64,000 nt of DNA, from sequence record NC_050154.1; one strand, written 5' to 3'. Numbering within the stretch: the first letter of the stretch is position 1; each line of letters starts with the position of its first letter. The notes below the pieces were generated by a model. It did no database searches, was not told the DNA's origin, and saw only the letters and a list, made by a program, of their open reading frames with translations. The stretch comes from Escherichia phage D6. Positions 4,986 through 64,000 of this stretch are shown piece after piece. Position numbers and translations under genes: made by a program.

Positions 4986-5003
4986 ACCTTGGTTTAAGAG
5001 AAC
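4978..5003. other. cix-type crossover site, left, overlapping the cin stop
   Basis: Imperfect 26-bp palindrome AATCCTAAACCTTGGTTTAAGAGAAC sharing ACCTTGGTTTAAGAGAA with the site at 9242. Confidence 0.7.
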
Positions 5004-6553: not shown

Positions 6554-6555
6554 TT

Positions 6556-7089: not shown

Positions 7090-7093
7090 AACA

Positions 7094-7110
7094 AGGCCCG
7101 CTATCGGGCC
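7094..7110. terminator. bidirectional hairpin between the two convergent chaperone genes
   Basis: GGCCCGCTATCGGGCC followed by a T-run. Confidence 0.6.
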
Positions 7111-7117
7111 TTAATTT

Positions 7118-7648: not shown

Positions 7649-10474
7649 TTACACCTGTGCGACGTTATACCATGTGCCATTGATGTATTTTTGTATTGGC
7701 CTGAAGATGGCTTCATCATCGCCATCTACTTCACCAATGATTCTTAATCCGGTAATTGCGTGTCCGGCTTTTTCATAACGACCACCACGCGCCATCAATT
7801 GAACAACACGTGTGCCAAGTCGGACATCTCTCACATAGCGTGAGTCAAAATTGCCATAATTGCCGGGAATAACTTGCGCACCACAAAGCCAGTTACCGTT
7901 ATTATCCATGTACGCCTGACCATCGGTGCCATTGGCTGTCCTTGAGTTATTAATCATGTAGATGCCAAATTGCTTGTTCCCCAGTCCACCTATCATGAAC
8001 TTTCGGTCGGCGTGATTCTGGCGAAGTAACGCCTGAGCGCTATCAGTGTTAACTATATTTTTCCCAAAGATAGCGTTGTTATCGCGCATCTGAATCCACA
8101 TACCATTACTGCTGTTAATAGCAAAACGGTCTGAAAGTGTCTCCCCTGAAACATTAAGACCACGTCCCATCGAAACAGCGCCAGTAGCGTTATTAATCCA
8201 TAATGGCCTTAATCCGTTATAAGTCCCCATGTTGTCACCGGAGTTTGTCAACATGAAGTATGTATTTGAACCATCATTACGAATAAAGAATCCGTAATTA
8301 CCATAAGCAATACGTAGGCCGTTTGCTGATTTTGATATGACTTCGCCATTTACAATGGCATTGACAAGAACATACAAAGCATCCCATTTAAGATTCATCA
8401 GGTCTTTTGTTGTGGTACTTTGTTTGCTTCTCCATTTGAAATATTCATTGCCGTTGTCGCCTGTCTCAAACCACATGTATGAATCAGTATCGCTGTCGGC
8501 ATCATTTTTAAAACCAATCTTCGCCCAGTCAGTATTCCGAATCCAGGCAAGGATTGAGTCGTTTTCAAAAGTAAGTCCACCGGACAAGGTATCGCCTGTC
8601 TTTTGAACCGCGTTATCAGCCTTGTTTACCGTTTCCTGTAGATTTAAATCTTCCGCCGTTAGCTCAATATTTTTAGAACCGTCAAACGAGACGCCGTTGA
8701 TAGTACATGCTATCTGCAATTTGGTCGCTGTAGCCGCATTACCAGAGGTGTCCTGATTCCCTTTGGCATTGACGCCGGGAACTGAATCTTTTGACGTATA
8801 GATCTGTGCCCACTCGGACCATGCCGCAGCAGTGCTATCTCTTTTGGATCGAATGAAAGCAGGTGCATGAGCGCCATTTGTGCCACTCCAGCCAATGAAT
8901 AACTCACCTTCGCCAGCAGCGGTGGCACCTTTAAGGTGAAGCACATTGCCATAGGGGGAAGGGTAGCCATTGTTGTATGCCTCATACATCTGCAATCCAG
9001 TAGCAGCACCTTGCGTTGTACCGGTAAGCGCAGTAACGCGTCCTCTAGACGTAATTGTTGGTATCGAAATGTTCGTAGAACCATCGAACCTGACGCCATT
9101 AATGTTTATGGCTGTTTTTAATTTCGTCGCGGTATCGGCGTTCCCTGTCAGCGCCCCGGTGATCCCGCCGTTGAAAGTCTGGCGTGCACTCCACGTGTTA
9201 GCCGTGCTCAACAGGGGGATCTTTTCACCGCTGGTACCGAGTTCTCTTAAACCAAGGTATTGGATAACGGCCAGTGTGCTTGTTTTAGCCAGAATATCGC
9301 GACCGACTGACGTTAAATCAGTCTGCGCTACCGTATCCTTACCGGTGAAATAAGGCAGTTTGTTTGCACCAGTCGCAAGGCCAGCGAGCGCGGTTAAAGT
9401 TGCATCCAGAGGCTGTTTGCCTGCCAGCGCATTTGTCATTGTTGTCGCAAAGTTCGGGTCATTACCAAGTGCTGCGGCAAGCTCATTCAGGGTATCAAGA
9501 GCTTCTGGTGATGAACCAACCAATGCGGATATGGCAGCTCTTACATAAGCGGTCGTAGCAATCTGCGTGTTATTCGTACCCTGTGCAGCGGTAGGCGCAG
9601 TAGGTATTCCCGTTAATGCAGGACTTGCTAAAGGAGCTTTAAGAGCCAGAGCATTGTTGATAGTTGTGCTGAAATTCGGGTCGTTATTGATCGCAGCCGC
9701 TATTTCTTTCAGCGTGTCCATCGTTCCCGGAGCACCATTGATAAGCGCATTTATAGCAGCATAGACAAAGGCCGCATTTGCGATCTGTGTGTTGTTTGTA
9801 CCGGGTTCAGGTGTCGGCGAAGTCGGCGTACCTGACAGATGCGGACTATCGAGCGGAGCTTTTGTATCAACCAAATCATGGAGAGTTTTGACAGCCAGAG
9901 GTGTAGCCGCTTTTCTTTCTTCTGTACTGCTTATTTCATTAGAGAATTCGACACCAACAGCACGGTTAACCCGGTATTTAAGCACAATCATTTCTTTAGT
10001 CACAGCCGTTGCGCCGTTAGGCACGATAACTCGACATAATTCAATTTGATTCTGCCCAATAGTATTGTCCGTACGCGCGTAAATTCTTGCAGCACTGACA
10101 GAAGATGCGCTATCTACCTGTGTCGTTTTTACACCATGTTCAAAATTGGCTTCCAGCACAATAATGTTGGTAGCCCCAGCCTTTACCGAGACAGTCACAT
10201 CTTCTATTTGCTGAACGGATATCTGAACATTATTTACATCTACTGAAGCAGCCCCTTTACCTTCTGAGTTTTCAGAAGTTATACGAACACTCAACCCTGT
10301 GCCGGGAACTGGTTCAAATCCACAGTAAAAGCCAGGCAAAACAATATTTTTAAGTTTTCTGTTAAGAGCCGAACTACTATAGAGTTCGAAATATTGAACA
10401 TCAGCAAGCAAAGGCTGTGAGACACCAGAGGATAGTGTCATTATGTTGTTCGTTTTATCAGCCCCCATAATCAA
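7649..10474 (-). CDS. tail fiber protein S (constant N-terminal part fused to the currently selected variable part)
   Basis: 941 aa; Gly/Ala/Thr-rich repeats; contains the inverted-repeat segment and the cix site mid-gene. Confidence 0.9.
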   Translation of the reverse strand: MIMGADKTNNIMTLSSGVSQPLLADVQYFELYSSSALNRKLKNIVLPGFYCGFEPVPGTGLSVRITSENSEGKGAASVDVNNVQISVQQIEDVTVSVKAGATNIIVLEANFEHGVKTTQVDSASSVSAARIYARTDNTIGQNQIELCRVIVPNGATAVTKEMIVLKYRVNRAVGVEFSNEISSTEERKAATPLAVKTLHDLVDTKAPLDSPHLSGTPTSPTPEPGTNNTQIANAAFVYAAINALINGAPGTMDTLKEIAAAINNDPNFSTTINNALALKAPLASPALTGIPTAPTAAQGTNNTQIATTAYVRAAISALVGSSPEALDTLNELAAALGNDPNFATTMTNALAGKQPLDATLTALAGLATGANKLPYFTGKDTVAQTDLTSVGRDILAKTSTLAVIQYLGLRELGTSGEKIPLLSTANTWSARQTFNGGITGALTGNADTATKLKTAININGVRFDGSTNISIPTITSRGRVTALTGTTQGAATGLQMYEAYNNGYPSPYGNVLHLKGATAAGEGELFIGWSGTNGAHAPAFIRSKRDSTAAAWSEWAQIYTSKDSVPGVNAKGNQDTSGNAATATKLQIACTINGVSFDGSKNIELTAEDLNLQETVNKADNAVQKTGDTLSGGLTFENDSILAWIRNTDWAKIGFKNDADSDTDSYMWFETGDNGNEYFKWRSKQSTTTKDLMNLKWDALYVLVNAIVNGEVISKSANGLRIAYGNYGFFIRNDGSNTYFMLTNSGDNMGTYNGLRPLWINNATGAVSMGRGLNVSGETLSDRFAINSSNGMWIQMRDNNAIFGKNIVNTDSAQALLRQNHADRKFMIGGLGNKQFGIYMINNSRTANGTDGQAYMDNNGNWLCGAQVIPGNYGNFDSRYVRDVRLGTRVVQLMARGGRYEKAGHAITGLRIIGEVDGDDEAIFRPIQKYINGTWYNVAQV
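8641..9250. repeat. ~0.6 kb inverted repeat, right copy
   Basis: Reverse complement of 4997..5597. Confidence 0.8.
9242..9267. other. cix-type crossover site, right, inside the tail fiber gene
   Basis: TTCTCTTAAACCAAGGTATTGGATAA; shares a half-site with the left site. Confidence 0.7.
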
Positions 10475-10917
10475 CCCTCAACTTGCTCGATTGTCATGAG
10501 AATACTGTAACGTTTACCTTTATAGAGGGTATCTTGCTGGGTGCAAAGCACACCAAAAGCCCGTTCCTCAGCATCAACAAGCACAAGCGTGTTAAAATCG
10601 TAAGGCGTGTTATCCGGCATTCTTTCTTGTGGGAAGGCTGCATTGATAGTGATAATCCCATCCACGCTGGACAATATCAGATCGGACACAGCAAACTGTT
10701 GAGCGTCACTCAATTTAAAATCGAGTGGAATGTCCGCTATATTCCAGCCTCCTGCACCATTAGCAGTTACCAGACTAGATTTGCACCAATACGCCTTAGA
10801 GATAACAAAACGCGCACCTTTGCCGATCGCCGACTCAGCGCGGCGTGAATAATAGTAGGAAAGCAATTGTGCCTTATACAGGCGGTTACCATCTCTTGCC
10901 TTTAAATTTTCAGCCAT
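10471..10917 (-). CDS. tail-fiber-associated protein (P1 R-like position)
   Basis: 148 aa immediately upstream of S with overlapping stop/start; AAGGAG RBS. Confidence 0.5.
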   Translation of the reverse strand: MAENLKARDGNRLYKAQLLSYYYSRRAESAIGKGARFVISKAYWCKSSLVTANGAGGWNIADIPLDFKLSDAQQFAVSDLILSSVDGIITINAAFPQERMPDNTPYDFNTLVLVDAEERAFGVLCTQQDTLYKGKRYSILMTIEQVEG

Positions 10918-10963
10918 ACGAACATAGCTCCTTCATAAGCAATGAACCAAAGGAGAGTATGCT

Positions 10964-10978
10964 CAGTTTGTGATTTCC
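10964..10978 (-). promoter_or_regulatory. candidate late-promoter box (GGAAATCACAAACTG on minus strand)
   Basis: About 45 bp upstream of the R-like start, followed by a CATACT -10-like hexamer. Confidence 0.5.
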
Positions 10979-11011
10979 GTTGTTCTTCCCCCAAATGCGG
11001 GGGAGGAATTA

Positions 11012-11857
11012 TTAAACAGGTTGAAGGTGGTAATCCAAAGGCCACGCATCGAGTGGGGTTACATCAAGATGTAATTGCTTTTCTGCCGTTCGGTTCGGTA
11101 TGGCGTTAAGAGAAATATTGTCTACCTGGCAGGAGGTATCACTACGGGATAGCATATCAGCCATACTCTCAGTAACATAAACACCTTCAATTACCGAAAC
11201 ATCCGTAGACAAGCAATTTAGTATTTCTGCCACTTCAGGGAATACAGCACTAAGCCGAAACGAGACGCCATCAAAAACAATATGCAATGGCAATAAAGGG
11301 GCTATTACTGTTTCGAAGTCAGATAACAATTTCTGTACAGCGGCTTCTTTATCCTGCTCTCCATATGAGCGATATAGCTTGTTCTGATCAACAACGACCA
11401 GCCCCCTTGATGTCAGGAAGAACTCACCGAATTGAGCCTGTGCCGTAGGTATTTCTATTTCGGTCGCAAAATATGAACCATAGGGGTGTTTTTCTATATT
11501 TACAGGTGCATACAGCGGTTCCCAACTAACAGGAATACAACCGAATTCACGCCAGAATGTCTGCTCAATTGGCAAGATAGTGCCTTTAAAGTGCACTTCA
11601 TCTAAACGTTGTGCCAGCAGCATTGGCCTACGAGCCTTATCTTTTTCAGTGATAACGAAAAAACGCCCGTATTCAGCAATGCGGGCATCCATGTCCTCAC
11701 TGTCCATAGTGAAGAAGGATTTTCTGTTACTTATTCTTGTTAATATTGGTTCTACTGCCTCATTCCAGACATCCTGTAAAGCGTCTATAAATGCACTCCA
11801 GAGATGTGAATCCTGTTTTACTTTAGTTAATCGTTCCTTAAGCCAATTATCTTTCAT
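11012..11857 (-). CDS. putative baseplate protein (P1 gene 16-like position)
   Basis: 281-aa ORF in the tail fiber/baseplate operon. Confidence 0.45.
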   Translation of the reverse strand: MKDNWLKERLTKVKQDSHLWSAFIDALQDVWNEAVEPILTRISNRKSFFTMDSEDMDARIAEYGRFFVITEKDKARRPMLLAQRLDEVHFKGTILPIEQTFWREFGCIPVSWEPLYAPVNIEKHPYGSYFATEIEIPTAQAQFGEFFLTSRGLVVVDQNKLYRSYGEQDKEAAVQKLLSDFETVIAPLLPLHIVFDGVSFRLSAVFPEVAEILNCLSTDVSVIEGVYVTESMADMLSRSDTSCQVDNISLNAIPNRTAEKQLHLDVTPLDAWPLDYHLQPV

Positions 11858-11867
11858 GCTAACCTCA

Positions 11868-13298
11868 TTACGGGTAAGAAATGCTGAACGTTGAAGATTT
11901 CACGTCAAGATAAATGAAGTCATTAAAGTAAACTGCATCTTTCATATTTTGTATTGTTATGTCATAAGAGAGAAACATATCCAGCGACTCTATTACTCGC
12001 CAAATATCTTTAACTTTTACCTGTGCATAACATTGCTGAGAATCATCATCACTCTGTAGTAATAAACTGAATGATGACGAATCACGACCAAAATTTTCTT
12101 CCAACGCTGCTTTAATAGCATTTTGAGCGTCGTCTATCAGAACATTTTTACGTGCAATACCTGTAAATTTTATAGTAAATGGTTGTTCATTTGTATCTAC
12201 ATACTCAAACCGCTTGTTCAACTCATTTGGAACATTCTCTAGAGCTTTCAGTATTTCTGATTTTAGCTGAGCCTGGCTTACACCTGGCTTATGTCCGCAA
12301 AAGAAAATCTTGTTGATGTTTCGAACGTCAAACCCAGTTATTTTCTCTTGCAACGCTTCGCCCCAAACGTTCAACCATGAAGTTCCATGAACAACATTCT
12401 GAATGAATTGGCGATAATCACCGCCCCATACCACTTGTTCATCGTATGCAACATAATACTGAGCACGATTTCGAGTTTCTTCTGTAGTTTCCATACCACT
12501 ACCACCGGTAATGATCGAATCAGTTTTAAACTCTAGTGACTCCACATATTGAGCGATATTTCCAGCCGGTTCTAACTTTTGTCCTTCAGCCAAAGTATAG
12601 TCGCCAAGGCTAGCCATAACATCGATTCGAACCTGACAGCCTGCTGGAGGCATCATACCCATAGAACCATCACCAAACTTGACTCCAAGTTGTTCTGTAG
12701 GTTTATATGCCAATGAATAGTGCTTACTCTTGTCTCTGGACATTCTAAATAATGGGTTATATGTCCATTTTTCTTCTACGCCATCTGTAATAACATAAAC
12801 ATCCAGGCTAGAGACTTCTTTTGTTAATTCTCTGGAAAGCAACAATGTCAGAAATAAAGTTTCCTTCTCAATATCAAATGTAACGCTAACAGCTTCATGC
12901 TGTTTAGTTTCTACGCCAGAAACAGTTCCTCCAGCAGGAATTACAACACTGTTAATAATTGCCAAAGGTGTTTGGTCATTGGCAAGCAATTCAGCCCCGG
13001 CTGGTAACGTAATATCCCGATCAGTTTTATTGGTTATAGACGTTGTTCCGTATGAAGCACTAACAAATCGCCCTACGTAGCTACGGTCTTCAGCAACCGC
13101 TAAAATACTTGAGCGGCGCGTAGCCGTTGAAATAAGTCCCTCAGTGAGGCCGCGGCTTGCAAATGTACGGGCAATATAAATAAGCTGTGATCCGAATATA
13201 GCGTGCATCTGCACAAACTGACTATTTACAAATCGTGACCACCATGTGTTTTCATTTAACTTGGCGTTAAATTTGTCCAGTAATTCTGTAATCGTCAC
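11868..13298 (-). CDS. putative baseplate protein (BplA-like position)
   Basis: 476-aa ORF, operon context. Confidence 0.45.
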   Translation of the reverse strand: MTITELLDKFNAKLNENTWWSRFVNSQFVQMHAIFGSQLIYIARTFASRGLTEGLISTATRRSSILAVAEDRSYVGRFVSASYGTTSITNKTDRDITLPAGAELLANDQTPLAIINSVVIPAGGTVSGVETKQHEAVSVTFDIEKETLFLTLLLSRELTKEVSSLDVYVITDGVEEKWTYNPLFRMSRDKSKHYSLAYKPTEQLGVKFGDGSMGMMPPAGCQVRIDVMASLGDYTLAEGQKLEPAGNIAQYVESLEFKTDSIITGGSGMETTEETRNRAQYYVAYDEQVVWGGDYRQFIQNVVHGTSWLNVWGEALQEKITGFDVRNINKIFFCGHKPGVSQAQLKSEILKALENVPNELNKRFEYVDTNEQPFTIKFTGIARKNVLIDDAQNAIKAALEENFGRDSSSFSLLLQSDDDSQQCYAQVKVKDIWRVIESLDMFLSYDITIQNMKDAVYFNDFIYLDVKSSTFSISYP

Positions 13299-13669
13299 GC
13301 GCCCACCCCACTTGATTTCTGCATAACAATATCCATGCTCCCACCTTTCGCATAAAAACTAATTAATAAAGAATCTTCAGAAATTGATGTGCAACGAATC
13401 CCCTGCACATCCAAACCTGGCAAGTCTTGTCGTAGTTTTTTCATCATTCTCCCTTCAATAGCCACTTCAACTATGTGCGAAGTTTCAGAGCCGAATGGTT
13501 CATGCTTAAATTCTTCCATTGGATTCCCCCAAGAGGGTAAACCATAAACACTCCCTTCAGGGGTTCGTAGCCACTCGTCAAGTCGGGCCATCCATGCTGC
13601 GGAACTTCCTTCTGCAATAATGACACCGCTCTCATTCGTTTGAAGTCTTGCGTCTATTTCATAAAGCAT
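13295..13669 (-). CDS. putative morphogenetic protein (PmgA-like position)
   Basis: 124 aa, coupled to neighbours. Confidence 0.45.
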   Translation of the reverse strand: MLYEIDARLQTNESGVIIAEGSSAAWMARLDEWLRTPEGSVYGLPSWGNPMEEFKHEPFGSETSHIVEVAIEGRMMKKLRQDLPGLDVQGIRCTSISEDSLLISFYAKGGSMDIVMQKSSGVGA

Positions 13670-13674
13670 CTTTA

Positions 13675-16600
13675 TTAATCCTCAAGCAGAGCATCCAGCG
13701 ACGGGTCATTAATAGTTGTGCTAGCACGTGGTCGCGGTTGCGGCTGCGATGTTTTGACAACCTTATCCGGATCGCCTTTTGTATTGTTCTTGTTCACATT
13801 CAGAAGATCGTTCAGGATAGAGCAGATGTTATCCAGCGCCTTCAACATAGCAGGATCGTTATTTATAGTGTCAGTAGTTAATGGTTGTCTTATTCCGCTT
13901 CGTGCGAGATCTGTTACAGTAGGAAGCTGTGGTGGCATAGCAAGAAAAGGTTCTTGCACGGCTGACGCAGAGCCAAATATGGCATTATTGGCTTCGTTTG
14001 ATATACCTCTAATGCTATCTGCGGTTTGTTGAATACCATTATTCAGCCAACTACCGGCGCTCCTGGTAAGCGGGCTAATAGCCCTAGCAATTGTTGAGTT
14101 CTGCCCAGTAGCCTGATAAACCAAATCATTAACAATGCCAGTGCCATCTACCCCACCAATAAGTCGTGAAACGTTATCGCCAATTGCAGGTAACACAGCA
14201 GAGCTAATACGTTTCAGACCTGTTAATGACGAGTCAAACAAAGAGCCAAGCACCCCCTTATCTTCACCATCAATTACCTTGTATCCATTGTCATAAACTG
14301 GAATCCCCCTTGAGTTTACAGGGATTTTTTCACTCTCACTTGCCGAAGAAACACCGGAAAGAAGATCCACTGAAGGCATATCGCGTTCAGCTTTTGGTCT
14401 TTTTTGTAAAGCGTCTCTTATATCAGTTACCTGGCTTGCTTTTTGAAATCCAAAAGATTTACCGGTTAAGCTGGATATCTTTTCAGTAAGAGCCTGATCC
14501 ATTCCTTTCGCTTTTTCGGAAAGCGAAGATATAGAACCAAACGAAGTCGCCGACGCAAAATCCTTAATCAGGCCAAGGCTTGTACCAGCAAGGCTGGTAG
14601 CCGCACCTCCAAATAAATTACCTACCCCGCTGTCATTTATAGCGATTAATCTCTCAAGCAGACTTGATGGAGAGCCAGTATTAACATCAACGTTCTCTGG
14701 ATTAATCGGTTGCGATTGATTGCCTGTTTTTTGTGGCTTTTTGACTGCCTGGGCATATTGTGCAACCTCAATTGGCTGTTGTGTTGCTGTCGGAACGGCA
14801 TTCAAAACTGGTTGAGCTGGAGATTTTCCATTAACATATTTTATCTTGCGACCAACACTATATTGCGAATCGCGGGCAATTAGCTGACCACCATTTTCTT
14901 TCTGAATTTTATTAATCCGCGCCAATGTTTCGTCAGAGAATTGTCCCTCCCATCGACCAGTATTTGTGTTAAATGCCCCAAGAGCATTCTTTATGAACTC
15001 ATTGTTAACCGCCGGGTTTCCACCTTCTTTCGTCGCTATTGCACGAACTAATTGCGTCATAACCTCTGGGTTGCTGACGTCTATTTTTTCATTAGGCGAG
15101 ACGCCAAGATATTTGCTGACGTTATCAATATATTGATTAGTATTGTTCTCCTTTGGGGGTGCCCATTTGGAAATAATACTGGATACCGTCTGTAGCTTCT
15201 GATACCCAGCAGCGGCGCTGGTGCCGTTGTAATAGCTTGACACCTGGTTTGCCAGCGCCCTGATCCCTTCTTCAGGCGTGTTAAATCGCGCAAAACGTTG
15301 TTCACCTTTTGCATTTGGTGCTTCCAGCGTCGCCCCTTCCTGATTAGCGAAAACAAGGTTGCCGAGATTATTATTCCGGTAATTGCGGTTTTTGGCGTTG
15401 CTGCCACCAATATTCAGATCCGCTGCAATGGTGTTGCTGGTAGGGGCATTAAATTCAGCCGGGGAAGTATACCCGTGCTCACCAACACCATCTTCACCAT
15501 CACGCCCGCCTTGTAGCTGCTCACCTAAAGAATGAATCGCATCGACAGTTTTTTTGGTGCCGTCTTCAACAGCTTTTTTTACTTGTTTTGTGTTTTCGTC
15601 AGTGGATAAAAATGTATCCTTAAGGCTACCAAAAACAGATTTTGTGATATCTACCGCGCCGTTAACACCACGAGCAATATCTCCGGTATCAAAATTCTGA
15701 AGTTTTTCACCTGCTCTTTCAAATCCTAGCGCAGAAATTCCTTTCCCTATCAAGTTTGTTGCGCCCGACACCAAGCCCCCCATATCGAGCACATTAGCTG
15801 TTGCGTAAGCCGTTTTTTGCTGTTCGGATACAGCATCATCGTCACTTAAACCAAAGGCTGCCTTTTGCGCCTCTGTATCTGTGTAACCATCTATGGCGTC
15901 ATATCCAGCCATTGCCAGCGAACCGATGATAGGGACCGCTCTTGCCGCAGTGGATGCTGCTGATTTAACTCCTATTTTTGCAGCACTTTTGAGGGCTACA
16001 GATTCAGTTTTTTTCTTTGCAATGGCTTCGCCGGTTTTAATGGTGGCATCTTCAGCCACAACACCAGCTGACTTCACGGCCTTAGCAGTATTTTTTGTTT
16101 CCTTTGCAATCCCCTTTGATGTATCGCTGATAGTGCTTACATCTTTGGGTTTGCTGATCTCATTTTTAACTACTTTTGCTGCTCCGACACCAGTGCCAGC
16201 TGCAGCGCTACCGGCAGCAACTTTTTCGCCAACGGAGAGTGCTTTTTTCCCAAGATTGCGGCCTTTCCTTTTCGATTTATTCCGTTTATTTTTTCCCGTT
16301 TGATCACCAATATTGATTTTATTTCTTCTGCTTGCTCGATTTTTCCAGAGATCACTTAAGCCGAACTTATTTCCAGAAGACACTGATTTCCGAAGCTTAA
16401 CTATCTCGTCAGAAACATTTTCCAGACCATCAATTATTTTGTTGTCATTGGTCTGAAGGATTTTGGTTTGCTCTTCTACTGCTTGTGCGGATTTTGTCTC
16501 AACAGCGTTATTGAACGCTTTTGCAGATGTTGCTTTTTGAGAATTCACCGCCGCCGGATAAGTAATTACTGGTGATATCGCTTTCGAGGTTGATGTTTCT

Positions 16601-48019: not shown

Positions 48020-48079
48020 ATTGGCAGCCTCCTTTTGCTAATTTAAGGAGCTACCGCGTGAGGTCTCAATCTCAATGGC

Positions 48080-48155
48080 GGTAGCACTGGCTGGGTTGAG
48101 ACTACCGGCGCAAAAGGGAACCGGCCTGCCTTTCGGCAGCCCAGCCAGCACTACC
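48080..48155 (-). ncRNA. candidate c4-type antisense regulatory RNA (~76 nt)
   Basis: 16-bp closing stem with two G-U pairs enclosing a GAAA-looped hairpin; a loop GUCUCAA is complementary to two UUGAGAC sites, one just before the icd-like RBS. Confidence 0.4.
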
Positions 48156-48206
48156 ATTGATCTTGGAGCTATACGCTACGTATGGCTGTGCGATGGCATG
48201 ACACAA

Positions 48207-48228
48207 AAAAAGACGCTTTCGGCGTCTG
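48207..48228 (-). terminator. intrinsic terminator upstream of the c4-like RNA
   Basis: Minus strand GACGCCGAAAGCGTC followed by TTTTTTT. Confidence 0.6.
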
Positions 48229-48817
48229 TGTCGCCTTTTGCATTATCCGGGGTCTCAATCCCGGCACCCGTTTTTCTAAGGTGCCGTAGAAATATACCCC
48301 ACGATAATGCCAGGGCGCAACAGTCAGTATTTTATGCTTTGGCGGATTTCTTCCGGGCTTGCTTGCAGGCGTAGGCCATTGCTTTAGCTTTCACTTCATC
48401 CAGCTTCCCGGTGATCACTTCTTTTCCGAGAGTGACAAACCAGTCATAGCAACCGCCAGTGATGTTCTGGATTTGAAAGTTGAGGTAGCGAACTGTCATT
48501 TTGACCCCCCCAGCGCGAGTAAAGAATGCAGATTATCGCGTGAGTGGCGGACAACGAGTGATGGGAAAAGACAGTAGCTGTTCATAGTGTAGTGACTCCT
48601 TGCTTTCGGAGCCGCCATCGACTGTTCCACGGTCTGGTGGCGGCGCAATAAAGGCTGGAACACCGTGAGTCAACGGGGGCTTTTCAGCCACCTATATTGC
48701 ACCGCCATAGGTATAGCGGCGGCAATAATACGAAAAACTAAACAGTTTGTCTCAAAAAGTTGACCGGTGTGCCAATCGGTAGTGAATGTACATCGGAGAA
48801 ATTTACAATTCAACTTA

Positions 48818-52834: not shown

Positions 52835-53523
52835 TCCAGACTATGCATGAAGTGAATTTATATAGCCGTATTGATGGTTCTGGCTACAGAAACATATGGG
52901 TTGTTGGTGATCTGCATGGTTGCTACACCAGACTGATGTCCGAACTCCATCGTGTGGATTTTGACCCGGCGCAGGATTTACTGATATCTGTTGGCGACCT
53001 TATCGATCGCGGTACTGAAAATGTCGAATGTCTGGAACTATTGCAGATGCCCTGGTTCAGGGCAGTAATGGGGAACCATGAGCGGTTGATGCTTGATGCG
53101 TTAAGTCCTGATGGCAACGTGAATAACTGGCTAATGAATGGCGGACAATGGTTCTTCATGCTGGACACTGATCAGGAAATATTAGCCTGGGCGCTGGTGG
53201 AGCTGGTAAAGCGTCTGCCATATATCATTGAGTTGAACACCGGGCATGAAACTATCGTTATAGCCCATGCCGACTATCCAGGTGGAGAGTACCAGTTCGG
53301 TAAGGATGTGTCGCTTTTTGATGTTGTCTGGTCGCGCAGTCGCGTCGGTGATTCGATAGATGGCATTGGTGGAGAAATCACAGGCGCAGATCGCTTTATC
53401 TTTGGGCACACACCGGTACGAAGACCAAAAGCATACTGGAATCAGCACTACATAGACACGGGCGCGGTTTTTTGCGGAAATCTGACGCTAATGCAGGTGA
53501 AGGGAGGGCAGCTTAAAGTCTGA
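52831..53523 (+). CDS. Ser/Thr protein phosphatase, lambda-phosphatase/PrpA family
   Basis: GDLHGC, GDLIDRG, GNHE metallophosphatase motifs; colinear with E. coli PrpA as recalled. Confidence 0.9.
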
Positions 53524-56426: not shown

Positions 56427-57509
56427 ATGACCGTTTTAACCGACAAAGAACTGATTAAAGAAATCAAAGAGCGCATAGGCAGTCTGGACGTTCGAGACAA
56501 TATTGAGCGCCGTGCTTATGAAATTGCGCTGGCATCGCTGGAAGCAGAGCCTGTTGGTGAGTTTTATGAATACAAACCGGGTGACTGGTATCAGCGTTCG
56601 GTCGGGGATAAAGCACCAAAGTGGGTGCCGTTATATGCTACTCCGCCAGTTCGGGAATTGCAGGCTGATGTCGCGCAAGCAATTGAAAATCTCAAGCAGA
56701 AGTTAGTGGAATGCAATCGCTATAACTACTGCGCAGATGCCGTTAAAGGTGTTGAGGATGCCAGCCGCGTCTTGGCACTCCAAAATCAAAATATGTCAGC
56801 GCCGATAACGCCGGAGGCCATTGAAAACGCAATTGAATACATCCGCAGTATCGCTTTTCACATCGATGAAGACGATTACCACGGCAAACATATTGCGTAT
56901 TTCATGCGACAAGCATTGGCCTGGCTGGAAGGGCATTCATGCAGCAACGACAGACTGGGTAAAGCCGATAATCAACCAGTACGCGGCAACCAGGCTGCCG
57001 AATCCAATCGCGGTAATGAGTGGACCGGCAATCCTGATATTGATAACGCCATCATCATGCTCGATCGCATAGATACGCTGGAAAATTGCGATGATGACCG
57101 TATTGAGGCTGTTAAGGCCGTTTTGCGTAGACTGGCTGGCAACTATCCGGATATTCCGGATAGTTCGGTGCCAGCGCCAGGAAAGGGCGTCACCGGTGAA
57201 CGTATCCGAATTAAGCCGCATGTTTATCGCGAACTGGTTAACCGTCTCCACGATACAGCGATCAAGAGTGCGGGCACCCAGCAATTACGAGAAAGAATTA
57301 GCCGTGTTTTGGGCGACGTTATTACACCAGATCATCATAAACAAGCCGAGAAAAGTGGCTTGGAAAGGTGTCACCTTGAGGCGGCATTAAACATTAAGCC
57401 GGGGCATACGCTTGGCATTATTGATGCACTATTGGTTCATAAGATGGCCAGGGCTTTATTGCCGCTGGTGGCTGAAAAGCATGAGGCGGACCATGCCAAC
57501 GAAAGCTGA
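56427..57509 (+). CDS. hypothetical protein, mosaic with the 49682 ORF
   Basis: 360 aa; shares the HVYRELVNRLHD...GTQQLRERI module. Confidence 0.55.
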   Translation: MTVLTDKELIKEIKERIGSLDVRDNIERRAYEIALASLEAEPVGEFYEYKPGDWYQRSVGDKAPKWVPLYATPPVRELQADVAQAIENLKQKLVECNRYNYCADAVKGVEDASRVLALQNQNMSAPITPEAIENAIEYIRSIAFHIDEDDYHGKHIAYFMRQALAWLEGHSCSNDRLGKADNQPVRGNQAAESNRGNEWTGNPDIDNAIIMLDRIDTLENCDDDRIEAVKAVLRRLAGNYPDIPDSSVPAPGKGVTGERIRIKPHVYRELVNRLHDTAIKSAGTQQLRERISRVLGDVITPDHHKQAEKSGLERCHLEAALNIKPGHTLGIIDALLVHKMARALLPLVAEKHEADHANES

Positions 57510-58134: not shown

Positions 58135-58281
58135 GTGTCAGATCGAAATATAGCAGCTAAAAGCCAGGAAGAGCGAGACAAGGTGAACGTAGACCTTGCC
58201 GCCAGCGGCGTTGCTTACAAACCCCGCTTTCACAAACTATGCCTTTTCAATGTATACTGTATGAATAAACAGTATCATTGA
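58135..58281 (+). pseudogene. hot: truncated hot (homolog of Pol III theta, HolE) remnant
   Basis: GTG after GGAGG; ERDKVNVDLAASGVAYKPRF aligns with HolE DKVNVDLAAAGVAFKERY, then homology stops and the frame ends inside the LexA box. Confidence 0.5.
58255..58274. promoter_or_regulatory. LexA box (SOS operator) upstream of humD
   Basis: TACTGTATGAATAAACAGTA, perfect CTGT-N8-ACAG. Confidence 0.8.
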
Positions 58282-58292
58282 GGTAAAACGCT

Positions 58293-58682
58293 ATGGGCTT
58301 CCCTTCTCCTGCGGCGGATTATGTTGAAAGCCGAATTTCTCTTGATCAGCAACTAATTAGACATCCATCAGCAACCTACTTCATGCGGGCAGCTGATAGC
58401 CATCACCGTGAGGGAATATTGCAGGGTGCTTTGCTGGTGGTTGATTCCTCACTTACTCCGGTTGATGGCTCACTGCTTATATGCGCTATGGAGGGGGAAT
58501 ATCGCGTAAAAAGATACCGGAAGTATCCGCGCCAGCACCTGGAGGATTTAAGCACCGGGAAGAAAGAGGCGTTACCAGTAGATGACGATGGTTACACGGG
58601 TAGTAATGCTGTTTTTGGTGTGATCACCCACATTATCAATGACGCCAGGGGCGGTGAATTTGATGATAGTCCTGCTATATGA
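58293..58682 (+). CDS. humD: UmuD'-like S24 peptidase-fold protein
   Basis: 129 aa; SATYFMRAADSHHREGI...GALLVVDSS; lacks the UmuD N-terminal arm. Confidence 0.85.
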   Translation: MGFPSPAADYVESRISLDQQLIRHPSATYFMRAADSHHREGILQGALLVVDSSLTPVDGSLLICAMEGEYRVKRYRKYPRQHLEDLSTGKKEALPVDDDGYTGSNAVFGVITHIINDARGGEFDDSPAI

Positions 58683-58816
58683 TTTGTTTTCAGAGAAACC
58701 ATAGAGAGGCATGACTGGATCTATATCGCCCTGGCCATTTAAATGATTCCTCCCATTAGACGCGGTTACTCACTTGAAGATAAGATGAGGTTATAATTCT
58801 CTTTTTAGGTACGCGA

Positions 58817-59239
58817 ATGAGTTCGTCTGCTTTTGTCACTGTTGTCACTGGAGTAAGCGTTTTTGTCCTAGGTCGACTCATCATCAAGGGGGTTGAGTCT
58901 TACATTTCATTCAAGGAACAGTTGGGGGAAATATCGCATCTGTTATTGTCTAACCAAGCAAAGCTATCGAATCCCCGCTCTGACTTAAAACAAGAAATCA
59001 TCCATGATTTGAAAGATGCGGCAGCACAGTTACGGGTGAAGTACGAACTATTACCTTTCTATATCAAAATGTTACACATCGGTTTTCGCCTTGTTCCATC
59101 AGAAACTGAAATTCGTAAAGCGGCGCAAGAATTGAATCTGATAGCCTCGATACATGACGGTAAAACCGGAGAGCTGCCATATGAGCACATAGCCAAGATT
59201 GGATTACTGCTCAGAATTCCAACCACTTATTCTGCTTAA
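58817..59239 (+). CDS. AT-rich hypothetical membrane-anchored protein between humD and phd
   Basis: 140 aa, N-terminal TM FVTVVTGVSVFVLGRLII; lower GC than flanks. Confidence 0.55.
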   Translation: MSSSAFVTVVTGVSVFVLGRLIIKGVESYISFKEQLGEISHLLLSNQAKLSNPRSDLKQEIIHDLKDAAAQLRVKYELLPFYIKMLHIGFRLVPSETEIRKAAQELNLIASIHDGKTGELPYEHIAKIGLLLRIPTTYSA

Positions 59240-59347
59240 TCCCAGCAATTGCAAGACTGCATCTCGAGGATTTAAGGCACCAAGAAGTGGTATTCAGCAT
59301 CATTAAAACCTATAATTGCGTACACATAACGAGCACACGAGGTGTTT

Positions 59348-59569
59348 ATGCAATCCATTAACTTCCGTACCGCGCGCGGCAACCTTTCTGAAGTGCTCAA
59401 CAATGTTGAAGCCGGGGAAGAGGTTGAAATCACCCGCAGAGGCCGTGAGCCAGCAGTAATTGTTAGCAAGGCTACTTTTGAAGCCTACAAAAAAGCGGCG
59501 CTGGATGCCGAATTTGCATCCCTGTTTGACACCCTGGACTCCACCAACAAGGAACTGGTTAACCGATAA
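59348..59569 (+). CDS. phd: Phd antitoxin
   Basis: [73 protein letters not shown], matches P1 Phd as recalled. Confidence 0.97.
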
Positions 59570-59949
59570 TGAGGCATATATCACCGGAAGAACTTATTGC
59601 GCTTCATGATGCGAATATAAGCCGCTACGGTGGCCTGCCGGGAATGTCAGATCCGGGTAGGGCAGAGGCCATTATCGGGAGAGTTCAGGCCAGAGTTGCC
59701 TACGAAGAGATCAGCGACCTTTTCGAAGTCTCCGCCACCTACCTGGTGGCTACAGCGAGAGGGCATATATTCAATGATGCCAATAAGCGTACCGCGCTAA
59801 ACAGTGCGCTGCTATTTCTACGCCGTAACGGGGTTCAGGTATTTGATTCACCTGAACTGGCAGACCTTACTGTAGGCGCTGCGACTGGCGAGATATCTGT
59901 ATCTTCTGTCGCCGACACGTTACGTAGATTGTATGGTTCTGCGGAGTAG
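59569..59949 (+). CDS. doc: Doc toxin (Fic-fold kinase)
   Basis: [11 protein letters not shown] Fic-type motif; full-length match to P1 Doc as recalled. Confidence 0.97.
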
Positions 59950-59953
59950 ATTA

Positions 59954-60151
59954 ATGGCACGTAAATACAACAAGTTGTCCCGTGAAGCGTTAAAGATGCT
60001 TCTTGATGGCGTGAGTCGCCGCGAGGTAAAGCAATACCTGGTTGGTAAGCAAATTGGTGCCAGGACCGCTATTGCTGTGTTATGCCGTCAGGAAATGGTT
60101 GTGCTTAAACAGAGAATGCTTGGTAGCAGACAAAGTGCTTCCAGTATTTGA
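59954..60151 (+). CDS. hypothetical small protein downstream of doc
   Basis: Start chosen at MARKYNKL. Confidence 0.4.
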   Translation: MARKYNKLSREALKMLLDGVSRREVKQYLVGKQIGARTAIAVLCRQEMVVLKQRMLGSRQSASSI

Positions 60152-60156
60152 AAAGA

Positions 60157-60179
60157 AGCCCGCCATACCAAGCGGGCTT
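60157..60179. terminator. bidirectional terminator
   Basis: AAGCCCGCCATACCAAGCGGGCTT flanked by A- and T-runs. Confidence 0.7.
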
Positions 60180-60183
60180 TTTG

Positions 60184-60960
60184 TTATTCCACCTCTTCTG
60201 CCGCTGTATCATTGGACTGTTCTTCTTTGGCCCGTTCTGCAATCGCCGCACGGCATTTCGCCCTGGCTGTAGCGATTGCTTCTGCTCGCACATCGTCTGG
60301 AATCGTTGACGTGATATACATATCCAGTTCTTCGGCACGGAATACTGTTTGGTCCAGATATTCGCGTAGCATCCAGGTAAATTCGAAATCACACGCGATA
60401 ATCTCTGCGCTACCTTCTGCACCATTTGGGAAATGAATAAATGCCTGTTTAGCCAAACCGATAACACGACATGCGGTTGCCAAAACAGCGACAACCAGGT
60501 TTACATTTTCACACGCTACGGGCTGATTAACGCCGGAGATTACTCCATTTAACTGTCGGTTATATGGAAGGTAGTTTGAGATGCGTTCTACGCGCCATGT
60601 GCCAGTCAGGCTGCCATTCTTAAAGATAATTGGTGTAACGGATAGCCCAAGCTCGCGTATAAGTCGTTGCGCTATAGCAGGATCATTAAACATGTCTAAT
60701 GCTACACATTCGAAAGACTGTGCAAGGGTAAACAGTTCTTCCAGAGAGTAGTCTTTGCCCCTGGCGGTGATGTAACGATGAACGCCGCTTTCTGCATCGC
60801 TCCATATAGCTACGCCATGCTCTTCATTCAGTTCTTCATTAAAGCCGAGATATGTCATGATAGTGCGTTCAATCGTGTCAAACGGCAGTGACATGTCGGC
60901 GTTAACAGCCACCAGCAGGCCATTACGCAAGCGGTATTGAATTGCTTTAGTATTTTCCAC
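60184..60960 (-). CDS. hypothetical protein
   Basis: 258-aa ORF. Confidence 0.55.
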   Translation of the reverse strand: MENTKAIQYRLRNGLLVAVNADMSLPFDTIERTIMTYLGFNEELNEEHGVAIWSDAESGVHRYITARGKDYSLEELFTLAQSFECVALDMFNDPAIAQRLIRELGLSVTPIIFKNGSLTGTWRVERISNYLPYNRQLNGVISGVNQPVACENVNLVVAVLATACRVIGLAKQAFIHFPNGAEGSAEIIACDFEFTWMLREYLDQTVFRAEELDMYITSTIPDDVRAEAIATARAKCRAAIAERAKEEQSNDTAAEEVE

Positions 60961-60966
60961 GTTAAA

Positions 60967-61407
60967 TCACTCCACCACAAACCAGTCACATGCCAGTAAG
61001 TCGCCTACAGAAGGAACCCACGGAACAACTACACCTTGTGCATTTTTTAAGGCGAAATAAGCACCATACGGAACGAGGTCGCCGGGGAAATATCCCTTAA
61101 TGGCTTCCATTCGTGCCGGGTACTGTCCTTCAGGAACCAGCCAGCAGAATTGGTTTTCGCCGTTCCACCCGCGTCGAGCAACTTTCTTGCCATCCTTCAG
61201 CCACATCAGCGCGTCAGAAAAGTCGGCTGCTTCAAGGTCGATTTCTTCTTGCTGGGTGGTGATGCCACCAGCAGAAATAGTTACGCTCCCGGTAAGATTA
61301 ATCATCACGCCGTTGTCATCCGTAATGATGACCGTGGTTCCATTTTTTTTGTGAGCTTTGTATTTTGGAAGGAACTTAAAAAGCTCTTTCGTTGCCATGT
61401 TATTCAT
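60967..61407 (-). CDS. DUF2829-like protein (Tad2-type fold candidate) with N-terminal extension
   Basis: FSDALMWLKDGKKVARRGWNGENQFCWL in the C-terminal ~85 aa. Confidence 0.55.
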   Translation of the reverse strand: MNNMATKELFKFLPKYKAHKKNGTTVIITDDNGVMINLTGSVTISAGGITTQQEEIDLEAADFSDALMWLKDGKKVARRGWNGENQFCWLVPEGQYPARMEAIKGYFPGDLVPYGAYFALKNAQGVVVPWVPSVGDLLACDWFVVE

Positions 61408-61421
61408 AGTCTTTTCTCTGC

Positions 61422-61916
61422 TTATAACTTTTCGTACTGAAGCGGTGAACGCTTAATTTCAAAGTGGCCTTCCGATGTGCTACCAAAGCCACCATCACCA
61501 CGTTCCGTTTCGTTGAGTTCCTCAACCTCGACTAGTGAGACTTGTTCAACACGCTCAAAAATTCCTTGCATGACAGCCATTCCAGGCTTGAGACAAACGC
61601 CTTCCCCGCCGGGATCAGTAATCAGTTTTGCCATGATTTCGCCGCGATAATCGGAGTCGATAATTCCTACGCAGTTAGCCAGGCGAGTATGTTTTTTGCA
61701 GCCCAATCCGGATCGCGGATAGAGTTTCAGACACCAGCCGGGCGGGATCTCCATAGCCAATCCGGTGTACACCCACCAGCTTGAGGAAATTGCACCATTG
61801 CTATCGACACATGGTTTTATTTCAACAGCCTCAAAATCCATCGCCGCCGATCCGGAGGTGGCATAAGCTGGAAGTTTTGCTGCCGGATGTAGGCGTTTCA
61901 CTTTTACGTAAATCAT
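61422..61916 (-). CDS. dut: dUTP diphosphatase
   Basis: GIIDSDYRGE and RGDGGFGSTS dUTPase motifs. Confidence 0.92.
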   Translation of the reverse strand: MIYVKVKRLHPAAKLPAYATSGSAAMDFEAVEIKPCVDSNGAISSSWWVYTGLAMEIPPGWCLKLYPRSGLGCKKHTRLANCVGIIDSDYRGEIMAKLITDPGGEGVCLKPGMAVMQGIFERVEQVSLVEVEELNETERGDGGFGSTSEGHFEIKRSPLQYEKL

Positions 61917-62389
61917 TGTTTTTTAGCTCTCTGCGTGAAGGTGTAAACCCGACGTTTGATATGTGGAACGGTTGGAACAGGAAGACAGGAACTTTCAATA
62001 ACTCCTTGCTCCTCCAGCGATCGCACCGCCCGCAAGAACTGCGACGTGTCGCCGCCAAACTGGCGGGCATAGGTGCTGCCGTTATGAAGTATTTGAGCTA
62101 TTACCCGAGCTTTTGTCTGGCTGTCACGATATGCGAATAGCCGCACGGCCTCTTCTGGCGCAATCGATAACTGATAGCCTTTACCGGCACGGTGTCGAAT
62201 GAATCCATGCGCCAGTAGGTTTTTGAGTTCGTTACGAGTGCGAACAGATCCGTAATCCAGGAAGTGTGGATTGATAACGACTGGCTTAAACCATTCCGTA
62301 GGTGCTTTAGCTAATAGAGCTAACAGCTTCCCGGACAATCCTGGATAGGAAGACGGGTAACAATTCAGAGATGGGTAATAAGTTTTCAC
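61913..62389 (-). CDS. hypothetical protein
   Basis: 158-aa ORF coupled to dut. Confidence 0.5.
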   Translation of the reverse strand: MKTYYPSLNCYPSSYPGLSGKLLALLAKAPTEWFKPVVINPHFLDYGSVRTRNELKNLLAHGFIRHRAGKGYQLSIAPEEAVRLFAYRDSQTKARVIAQILHNGSTYARQFGGDTSQFLRAVRSLEEQGVIESSCLPVPTVPHIKRRVYTFTQRAKKQ

Positions 62390-62742
62390 CGACGCCCCCT
62401 TGCCGGATATCGACCTGCATTAGTATCCGGTGCAATAAAGCCGGTAGTGGGGCGAGTGAAAGCGAGATTAATCTTCTCGACCATAGTGCGATAATTTTCC
62501 TGATAGTGGGCCAGGAGTTTTTCGGCGGCAATGATGGTTACTTTCCGGACGTAGCTTTCTGCTTCCTCCAGATTTCGCCAGTTTTTTTCGAGGGTAAACA
62601 CAGGGACGGCCTCAAGCCCGGTCATGATGCCGAATACAACGACAGCATGACTGTTCTTAACACCAGCGGCGAAGGTTACGGTGTAACCATCCACCGTGAA
62701 GCGTCTTGATTCCGTGATTTGACTCTGCAAAGCACCCTCCAA
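62386..62742 (-). CDS. hypothetical protein
   Basis: 118-aa ORF, first gene after the operator-like motif. Confidence 0.5.
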   Translation of the reverse strand: MEGALQSQITESRRFTVDGYTVTFAAGVKNSHAVVVFGIMTGLEAVPVFTLEKNWRNLEEAESYVRKVTIIAAEKLLAHYQENYRTMVEKINLAFTRPTTGFIAPDTNAGRYPARGRR

Positions 62743-62786
62743 AATAGGCGAGGGTACTTTACAGCAAAGATATCAATCTAAAAAGA

Positions 62787-62807
62787 TGTGTTAGAAATTT
62801 AATTTAT
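62787..62807. promoter_or_regulatory. candidate C1-type operator, overlapping the recombinase stop
   Basis: TGTGTTAGAAATTTAATTTAT. Confidence 0.5.
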
Positions 62808-63832
62808 GAATCCATCAAGCGGCTATTAGCCCCCACAGACACACCGCCACGGCGCAGATACCGCATAAGTGTTTCCGGTTTCTTCCAGGTTCCTTCCTGC
62901 ATAATCTCCACCATAGACACCTGCTTTTCAGCCATATCGATAGCGGCCCCGACACGAGCACTATGCCCGGTCCACGTCCGGTATCTCCCTTTGTTTGGCG
63001 TGGCATCCCTTTTATTCAGCAACACCCAGGCGTCGCTGAATATTTTCTCCATTGCAGGTGCAGTAAGGGGCGTTGTCGTAATCCTGGCCTTATTGCTACG
63101 GTGTATCGGCGGGAACAGCACCGCGTCAGGATGTTCACGAAGCCCGGAAACATCCAGCCAGTCATTCAGCACAGCAGTAGTGCGACGGGAAAGCACCTTA
63201 TCAAGCCCGGCGGCGGTCGTTATTGTCTTCGTGTGTGAAATATGTAGCGTGACAGTGTCACCTGTTTGGTCCAGATCTCCTACACGAATACGCGAGATTT
63301 CCGACATACGCATCAGCGTATTGTATGCAACAAAGAGAAAAGCCCGGTTGCGCAGGTCCACCAGCCGTTCTGACCTGGACAACAGGACGTCGAGCAGTTT
63401 CAGGTCGTCCCATCGCAGCGGTATAGCCTGGCCTGTTCGTTCGCCTTTTTCCGTTGCCGCTTCGCGCCGGATACGCCGCATAGCCAGAGAAACACTTTTA
63501 TCATCCGAAAGTGGCGGAAGGCCACAATGAGAAAGCAGCATGTTAAGCATGGCGTAGTGCTTATCAATGGTGGTCGAAGCCAGATCGGCATCATGCAACT
63601 GAAGAAAATACTCGCGGGCCATTTCTGGTGAGATCGGAAACCAGGCAAGCTGGCGAGCGTGACACCAGCGCGCCCAGGAATGAAACACCAACCGGAGGTC
63701 GCGCAGAGTATTCGGCGCATAAGCACCCTGATCATTCATGAACCGCATAAAGTTTTCTGCGGCTTCCTGGTACTCTTTGCCAATGTTGCGCAGAAAACCA
63801 CCGGAACTGCCAGAGATAATTAATTCACTCAT
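62804..63832 (-). CDS. Cre-family tyrosine recombinase (Dre-like)
   Basis: 342 aa colinear with P1 Cre at reduced identity: HSWARWCHARQLAWFP, SVSLAMRRIRRE, GHSARVGAAIDMA; rox-like half-site follows. Confidence 0.9.
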   Translation of the reverse strand: MSELIISGSSGGFLRNIGKEYQEAAENFMRFMNDQGAYAPNTLRDLRLVFHSWARWCHARQLAWFPISPEMAREYFLQLHDADLASTTIDKHYAMLNMLLSHCGLPPLSDDKSVSLAMRRIRREAATEKGERTGQAIPLRWDDLKLLDVLLSRSERLVDLRNRAFLFVAYNTLMRMSEISRIRVGDLDQTGDTVTLHISHTKTITTAAGLDKVLSRRTTAVLNDWLDVSGLREHPDAVLFPPIHRSNKARITTTPLTAPAMEKIFSDAWVLLNKRDATPNKGRYRTWTGHSARVGAAIDMAEKQVSMVEIMQEGTWKKPETLMRYLRRGGVSVGANSRLMDS

Positions 63833-63984
63833 GAAACCATTTCACCTCTATATACAGATGACGCTACGCGAAAAATATAAAAATGACAGGGTAGCTATAA
63901 GTTAATTTTCAAAATACAAGCCTTTGATTGGAGGTACGTATTTTCAGTGATGTCAATACTGTTCATCTACACATGATTATAGCC

Positions 63985-64000
63985 TAACTTTAAATAATGC
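63985..64000. other. partial rox-type recombination site (first 16 bp, cut by window end)
   Basis: TAACTTTAAATAATGC equals the first 16 bp of rox (TAACTTTAAATAATGCCAATTATTTAAAGTTA) as I recall it. Confidence 0.6.

Follow-up and report, generated by a model that had tools for sequence, protein, structure and literature searches.

The dre gene and the adjoining rox half-site in a 64-kb sequence of the phage D6 type

Identification of dre and rox

The window, i.e. the whole analysed stretch of 64,000 nucleotides, very probably ends with the site-specific recombination module dre-rox of either phage D6 or a plasmid prophage that cannot be told from it here, and is cut in the middle of rox. The dre gene, encoding the Cre-like tyrosine recombinase Dre, occupies positions 62804-63832 of the minus strand (stop codon included), as an open reading frame of 342 amino acids with an ATG start. 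The first half of rox lies at 63985-64000 and comprises the 14-nt arm TAACTTTAAATAAT (63985-63998) and GC, two of the four spacer bases. Between them lie 152 nt (63833-63984, minus strand), representing the leader and regulatory region of dre. The pair found at the window end is an already known, previously described system. Dre/rox of phage D6 was reportedly presented by Sauer and McDermott in 2004 (GenBank AY753669), and the complete D6 genome is said to have been published by Gilcrease and Casjens in 2018. Since 2004, Dre/rox has become a standard tool of genome engineering (PMC3553980, PMC4777119, PMC3082901, PMC12331466).

When window positions 62700-64000 were compared with 50,697 phage records by megablast, a single match was obtained, AY753669.1 ('Enterobacteria phage D6 immC region', a 7.6-kb fragment deposited in 2004), with 100.0% identity. 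The dre coding sequence is 100% identical at the DNA level to that annotated as dre (AAV84949.1) in this record, and all 342 of the 342 Dre residues are shared with D6 Dre. Base-for-base identity extends over 2,389 nt (61612-64000); in a gapped BLAST alignment, the two sequences are collinear over approximately 61608-64000 without mismatches, with a single gap at the alignment edge beside a GATC. The comparison with D6 covers the AY753669 stretch, and the phage collection searched was one without the complete D6 genome. An earlier note on this DNA had assigned the recombination module to the D6 type, which agrees with the identity of both protein and DNA to D6 dre; its description of the backbone as D6-like was right as to the type and understated over the AY753669 stretch, where the window is identical to D6.

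When the window and the D6 record were aligned without gaps, 254 mismatches appeared. We rejected these as a biological difference, as all of them fall into the last ~330 bases of the record, within GATC-bounded repeats. Left of the GATC, AY753669 is made up of GATC-bounded pieces that recur (L001 1-71 equals 258-328, and L001 72-257 equals 329-515), and collinearity with the window is lost in this far end (L001 1-328). It looks like a cloning chimera starting at GATC, not like a genome difference.

As for rox, positions 63985-64000 read TAACTTTAAATAATGC, which exactly matches the first 16 nt of the site (TAACTTTAAATAATGCCAATTATTTAAAGTTA), as the earlier note had recognized. The D6 record carries a 32-bp misc_recomb feature described as 'region of crossover (rox) site for Dre recombinase', and the last base of the window is base 16 of this feature. 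From there, AY753669 runs on as CAATTATTTAAAGTTA, completing TAACTTTAAATAAT-GCCA-ATTATTTAAAGTTA, and an inverted-repeat search of the full site in the D6 record returned 14-nt arms that are 100% complementary and separated by 4 nt. The sequence expected past base 64000 is thus CAATTATTTAAAGTTA, followed by TAAAATGCCGATTTTTTTT. The published rox, (A)TAACTTTAAATAAT TGGC ATTATTTAAAGTTA(G) (PMC3082901), is the reverse complement of the AY753669 site, with both flanking bases in agreement, and its layout is given as 14-4-14 (PMC4777119). Counted from the dre ATG, the half-site begins at a distance of 153 nt, exactly as in D6. The site is situated upstream of dre, between this gene and c1; the latter gene lies beyond the window and follows rox in D6 and in related contigs.

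While bases 1-16 of the 32-bp rox are present in the window as an exact match, the other 16 were seen in the D6 record and in contig L016. This contig has a single mismatch to the last 4,000 bases of the window and carries the remaining half of rox immediately past the window end. The completeness of rox in this exact molecule is accordingly a presumption, made from identical or near-identical records. The abrupt end within rox looks like a convention of record linearisation, the source record having been opened at the midpoint of this site, since the P1 RefSeq record opens at the central A of lox and the record of plasmid pYU39_89 opens inside the rox spacer.

Properties of Dre and its gene neighbourhood

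Dre is clearly a member of the Cre family diverged from P1 Cre, as claimed in the earlier note: the two proteins (Cre taken from P1 RefSeq) share 40.5% identity in a global full-length alignment. When solved structures were searched (phmmer against PDB), Cre was the best match (E 5e-69, residues 22-341), and the resemblance extends across both domains; the hits were all chains of Cre apart from one Tre chain derived from it, and no Dre structure was among them. With 342 of 342 residues shared with D6 Dre as against 40.5% identity to Cre, no other Cre relative aligned better. The Pfam family Phage_integrase matches Dre with E 5e-17, and the N-terminal SAM-like domain is matched weakly (E 2.6e-4, just below the curated cut-off). 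The annotation of dre in AY753669, 'tyrosine recombinase; similar to the P1 Cre recombinase', is of the same sense.

The catalytic domain of Dre contains the R-E-K-H-R-W/H-Y active-site set of Cre-like tyrosine recombinases. All seven active-site residues of Cre are kept, namely R175, E178, K202, H290, R293, W316 and Y325 of Dre, which correspond in the alignment, in that order, to R173, E176, K201, H289, R292, W315 and Y324 of Cre. Five of them (R175, H290, R293, W316 and Y325) have been listed as conserved with Cre (PMC4777119). The term paralog, used for Dre in the earlier note, does not apply. There is no cre in the window, and neither loxP nor the 13-nt lox arm occurs on either strand; Dre is rather the positional counterpart of Cre, placed beside c1 and the pac genes.

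A GAGGTG hexamer is present on the minus strand at 63843-63848, 10 nt 5' of the dre ATG, and its columns are invariant across an alignment of nine sequences. As read from the sequence, it is the probable ribosome-binding site of dre. Downstream of dre, four open reading frames share its strand (60967-62742): orf2 (62386-62742), orf3 (61913-62389) and dut (61422-61916), all annotated in AY753669, and a Tad2-like ORF (60967-61407). Pfam matches were obtained for dut (dUTPase, E 6.5e-15) and the Tad2-like ORF (E 7.7e-23), while no Pfam family was matched by orf2 and orf3. The order pacB-c1-gap-dre-orf2-orf3-dut-Tad2-like ORF was found in eight of the eight places listed with the exact Dre.

In public assemblies, 5,863 index blocks contain a protein identical to Dre. 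Over the dre region, the best of 116 matching plasmids reaches 99.8% identity; the matching plasmids are approximately 90 kb in size and are typed as non-mobilizable. None of the 100 matches in 5,426 complete E. coli genomes was chromosomal; all were located on plasmids.

Conservation of rox and dre among relatives

We examined 16 relatives (8 plasmid records and 8 assembly contigs). Followed past the point where the window stops, the rox palindrome is completed in the D6 record, in contig L016 and in the 15 other relatives, and the distance from the rox start to the recombinase ATG is 153 nt in all 16. This offset is kept even where dre has diverged to about 80% DNA identity (305-308 of 342 residues at the protein level) and the spacer to 73%; altogether, the identity of the dre-rox spacer to D6 ranges from 73 to 100%. 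The 32-bp rox itself is identical in 12 relatives, and the other four carry a single substitution. In the nine-sequence alignment, rox appears as a block of invariant columns within variable non-coding DNA, which is the pattern expected when a recombinase holds its site constant.

The substitution seen in the four relatives is a T to C change at position 24 (T24C), i.e. a natural single-base variant of rox. Among variants of Dre with protein identities as low as 89%, some of them on P1-type IncY plasmids, the rox core is invariant.

In four relatives, the dre side is 95-98% identical to D6 but the c1 side only about 71%, and the drop sets in within the rox arm facing c1; one relative exhibits the reverse pattern. 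As judged from these identities, the switch in relatedness would fit an exchange of modules at or near rox. Ordinary homologous recombination would be another way to arrive at the same switch.

The D6-type backbone and its P1-like islands

A comparison of the whole window brought the same result as its end, i.e. a D6-type backbone. When aligned to the whole P1 genome by sensitive blastn, 9.6 of the 64 kb could be aligned and nothing reached 99% identity, whereas D6-group plasmids are collinear with the window at 95-99.6%. Positions 1-14000 are covered to 91-98% by D6-group plasmids at 94-97% identity. Positions 14001-39000 gave no megablast match to any phage record, and are 100% covered, at 97.8-99.6%, by non-mobilizable plasmids of approximately 90 kb from Salmonella and E. 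coli that carry dre. Positions 39001-64000 are covered to 91-94% by D6-group plasmids at 96-99%, and 37 plasmids each cover at least 80% of this part in one collinear place. No tRNA genes were found in the window. It is syntenic with P1, and most of its ORFs share 30-57% protein identity with their P1 counterparts, so that Dre, at 41%, is typical of the backbone. In one preprint, D6 is the nearest relative of the P1-like clade that lies outside it.

The portions alignable to P1 at the DNA level form five islands: cin with the invertible tail-fibre segment (4423-9919, 90.5% DNA identity), ppp (52866-53504, 89%), pmgT/U (57134-57474, 94.7%), humD (58240-58672, 92.9%) and phd-doc-pdcA (59311-60135, 97.9% to P1 88009-88833). 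The last one contains the phd-doc addiction module (59348-59949, plus strand), located by tblastn with the P1 proteins. The two genes are adjacent; Doc is a Fic-fold toxin and Phd is its antitoxin. Phd is identical to that of P1 in 73 of 73 residues and Doc in 125 of 126 (99.2%). The earlier note had called phd-doc P1-identical, which holds well for the proteins and less so for the DNA, with its 97.9%. In related contigs, a Fic-family match was likewise obtained for the gene that occupies the place of doc.

The closest plasmid checked, pYU39_89, carries a humD-like gene, phd, doc, pdcA-like and isaA-like genes, a DUF2829 gene, dut, orf3, orf2 and dre, in the same order as the window, and the P1-like islands are found in this plasmid too. 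Because of this shared gene order and the collinearity of the plasmids with the window, we take the window to be an ordinary D6-group sequence, as far as such sequence comparisons tell, and its P1-like islands to be standing features of the lineage. The P1-like patches would then be normal in the D6 lineage. With the window anchored as D6 or a D6-group phage-plasmid, D6 and P1 can serve as references for annotating the rest of it.

Alternative explanations

Several other readings were weighed against the dre-rox module of D6. The mosaic of P1-like and D6-like modules proposed in the earlier note could be taken to mean that the window is not D6 at all, being a new P1 x D6 hybrid which recently gained the P1 phd-doc and other segments. 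Five islands at 89-98% DNA identity to P1 within a sequence otherwise unalignable to it, together with the protein identities of Phd (100%) and Doc (99.2%), would suit such a hybrid. Yet pYU39_89 holds the same genes in the same order (humD-phd-doc-...-dre), the 37 plasmids mentioned above cover at least 80% of 39001-64000, the whole window is collinear with plasmids of the D6 group, and no island is 99% or more identical to P1, indicating that the exchanges were not very recent. A new hybrid is therefore quite improbable, and the mosaic holds as a contrast between the D6 lineage and P1 and not as a description of a newly formed element.

The 16-nt match to rox might also be a coincidence or a remnant, in which case the palindrome would be incomplete and the recombinase would act elsewhere or be an orphan. 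Such a reading is invited by the window ending at base 16 of 32 with the second arm outside. However, the 16-mer is present once in the window even when up to two mismatches are allowed, against 0.06 occurrences expected from shuffles, and for this reason the half-site is not a matter of chance. Moreover, the 2,389 nt are those of the D6 record with its full site, the full rox is found in all 16 relatives at the 153-nt offset, and the records of P1 RefSeq and pYU39_89 were opened inside their sites too, so we regard this reading as practically negligible. Finally, Dre/rox could serve mainly for chromosomal integration and excision in the style of a lambda-type integrase, not for dimer resolution and cyclization. 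Dre is able to catalyse intermolecular integration between rox sites (PMC3553980), and a few of the contigs bearing the exact Dre are very long (0.2-1 Mb, in 7 index blocks; L016, for instance, has 388 kb and L018 823 kb). These contigs, however, keep pacB-c1-rox-dre contiguous, and all 100 matches in the 5,426 complete E. coli genomes are on plasmids. Furthermore, rox is a simple 32-bp palindrome without arm-type sites and stays intact beside dre in every relative, with no split into attL and attR. A role primarily in integration appears highly improbable.

Predicted mechanism and roles

For the dre-rox module of D6, a mechanism can be proposed because Cre is well understood and its active site is conserved in Dre. 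According to it, two Dre monomers would sit on the pair of 14-bp arms in each rox, and two occupied sites would synapse as a tetramer. Tyr325 would then cleave the DNA, forming a 3'-phosphotyrosine link, and the strands would be exchanged in pairs via a Holliday-junction intermediate, presumably with no need for accessory proteins. The asymmetric 4-bp centre would provide the site with its direction.

By analogy with P1 Cre/lox, and given the shared pac-c1-site-recombinase neighbourhood and the location on plasmids, two roles of Dre/rox in D6 may be inferred. Dimers of the circular plasmid prophage of about 90 kb would be resolved, allowing each daughter cell to inherit a copy, and the terminally redundant linear DNA of an infecting phage would be circularised when rox lies within the redundancy.

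Comparison with known recombination systems

The window shares with D6 Dre/rox the same protein (342/342), the DNA of 61612-64000, the first 16 nt of rox, the 152-nt spacer and the orf2-orf3-dut genes. As far as can be seen, there are no biological differences between them; the window stops within the site.

Cre/loxP of P1 is alike in belonging to the same family, in the predicted mechanism and in having as its site a short inverted repeat whose centre is asymmetric. The neighbourhood is common to both phages as well, with lpa-pacA-pacB-c1-rox-dre in D6 and lpa-pacA-pacB ... lox-cra-cre in P1; in the latter, c1 lies between pacB and lox. The orientation of the lpa-pac-c1-site-recombinase block relative to phd-doc is inverted in D6 as compared to P1. 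The sites differ in their layout, as rox is 14-4-14 (32 bp) and loxP 13-8-13 (34 bp) (PMC4777119). Dre recombines rox efficiently in E. coli, without cross-reaction on loxP, VloxP and vox (PMC3553980, PMC3082901, PMC12331466), and no cross-recombination between Dre/rox and Cre/loxP has been reported (PMC3082901, PMC3553980). The activity on rox and not on loxP was published for precisely the protein and site found here (PMC3553980, PMC3082901).

Vika/vox, VCre/VloxP, SCre/SloxP, Nigri/nox and Panto/pox likewise consist of two components, a tyrosine recombinase and a palindromic site, and the Cre-like tool systems are mutually orthogonal (PMC3553980, PMC3082901, PMC4957104). Dre is 23% identical to Vika, which comes from Vibrio coralliilyticus (PMC3553980), and the VloxP and SloxP sites are of the 13-8-13 type (PMC3082901). 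The Vika, VCre, SCre, Nigri and Panto systems originate from other bacteria and are much more distant from Dre. Replicon dimers are also turned into monomers by tyrosine recombinases in the case of XerCD acting at cer/dif. The Xer recombinases are host-encoded and heterotetrameric, and their plasmid sites require accessory proteins and sequences that impose selectivity for resolution; in contrast, Dre/rox is encoded by the element itself and would do without accessory factors.

A putative promoter overlapping rox

A promoter scan predicted a near-consensus sigma-70 promoter that reads into dre, with its -10 hexamer TATAAT at 63976-63981 and its -35 hexamer TTGGCA at 63998-64003 (both on the minus strand). 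The -35 hexamer is made up of the rox spacer and neighbouring bases of the arm, and part of it lies beyond the window. In the D6 record, the scan gave TTGGCA-16-TATAAT (11/12) on the strand of dre as the only sigma-70-like site around dre-rox-c1, and no other sigma-70 site of at least 11/12 was found on either strand of the 64-kb window. A literature search returned nothing relevant on promoter activity at rox. In P1, by comparison, cra is located between lox and cre, and none of the three annotated cre promoters overlaps lox. The -10 hexamer is kept in eight of nine aligned relatives though its flanks vary.

If the predicted promoter is genuine, Dre bound to rox could repress dre, with the site doubling as an operator. 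We would only tentatively go further and propose that rox is more than a crossover site, acting both as an operator for dre and as a natural junction at which D6-type elements residing in one cell exchange their immunity and packaging modules; this broader role appears rather doubtful at present. The promoter-like element inside rox may also be of interest wherever rox sites are placed in bacterial constructs.

Results and discussion

The relatedness between D6 and several other dre-carrying elements changes over at or near rox, the 32-bp target site of the Dre recombinase. In four of the 16 relatives compared (plasmid records or assembly contigs L005, L013, L014 and L015), rox contained a natural variant, T to C at position 24 in the c1-side arm (ATTATCTAAAGTTA), and the Dre proteins were identical or 341/342 identical. 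All four were 95-98% identical to D6 on the dre side of the site, while the flank on the c1 side was about 71% identical. A further relative, L006, showed the opposite discordance between the two sides. From these discordant identities, it follows that the switch in relatedness is located at or near rox.

Dre was also found in different plasmid backgrounds. Variants 305-308/342 aa identical (about 80% at the DNA level) were present in NZ_CP054995 (L009), NZ_MG825383 (L010) and NZ_OP242238 (L011), each with a 100% identical rox beside the gene; one of them adjoins IS26. The carriers are plasmids of IncY (i.e. the P1-type replicon) and IncFIB, 80-192 kb in size, and the remaining records in the same identity group span 61-215 kb. 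Given Dre variants and identical rox sites on IncY plasmids, some P1-replicon elements appear to use Dre/rox instead of Cre/lox. The exact Dre protein occurred in 5,863 index blocks of public assemblies. A few Dre-bearing contigs were 0.2-1 Mb long (for example L016, 388 kb, and L018, 823 kb), far larger than a 90-kb plasmid; their size could reflect misassembly, cointegrate formation or integration of the element.

A sigma-70 promoter close to consensus (TTGGCA-16-TATAAT, 11/12) is predicted on the minus strand at 63976-64000 plus the next three bases (2696-2723 of L001, the reverse complement of AY753669, the D6 immC-region record of 2004). It is directed into dre, with its -35 element on the rox spacer, and no second sigma-70-like site of at least 11/12 was detected within the 64-kb window. 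The -10 element was kept in 8/9 relatives. This predicted overlap suggests that Dre is autoregulated at rox and, in bacterial constructs with rox, the site may bring promoter activity along.

Base 1 of the P1 RefSeq record (NC_005856) is the central A of lox, and base 1 of pYU39_89 (NZ_CP011430), the closest D6-group plasmid, lies within the rox spacer. The cut through rox at position 64000 is therefore probably a convention of record linearisation. As for AY753669, its far end (L001 1-328) loses collinearity with the window at about 61608, exactly at a GATC, and is made up of segments that are bounded by GATC and occur twice (1-71 equals 258-328, and 72-257 equals 329-515). This looks like a cloning chimera, which would account for the different C-terminus of dut in this record (148 aa, versus 164 aa in the window and related plasmids).

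The largest P1-like island by far comprised the invertase gene cin together with the invertible tail-fibre C segment (4359-10477; DNA 90.5% identical to P1, Cin protein 97%); outside such islands the backbone was not alignable to P1. The humD-phd interval is about 640 bp in D6 (58672-59311) compared to 46 bp in P1, and a hypothetical ORF of 140 aa is annotated there in pYU39_89. Gene order was compared using 59348-64000 together with L001 2721-7644. Relative to phd-doc, the lpa-pacA-pacB-c1-rox-dre block of D6 is inverted: D6 has doc> ... <dre rox c1> <pacB <pacA <lpa, whereas P1 has doc> lpa> pacA> pacB> ... lox cre>, with c1 between pacB and lox.

A C4 antisense RNA (48074-48161, minus strand; Rfam, 76 bits) and an isrK-type RNA (48206-48284, minus strand; 59 bits) adjoin an icd-like ORF, so D6 possesses a P1-type immI region. 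While P1 has three tRNA genes (Asn, Thr, Ile), ARAGORN detected none in 1-64000. Within the equivalent of 14001-39000, collinear D6-group plasmids are annotated with glnS, encoding glutamine--tRNA ligase, and with a segregation protein of the ParM type, the latter in contrast to ParA/ParB of P1. Finally, three genes downstream of dre, an ORF of 146 aa (60967-61407, minus strand; 146-225 aa among relatives) matched the Pfam Tad2-like (Thoeris anti-defense 2-like) domain with an E-value of 7.7e-23, which marks it as a candidate for an anti-defence function encoded by the D6 backbone.
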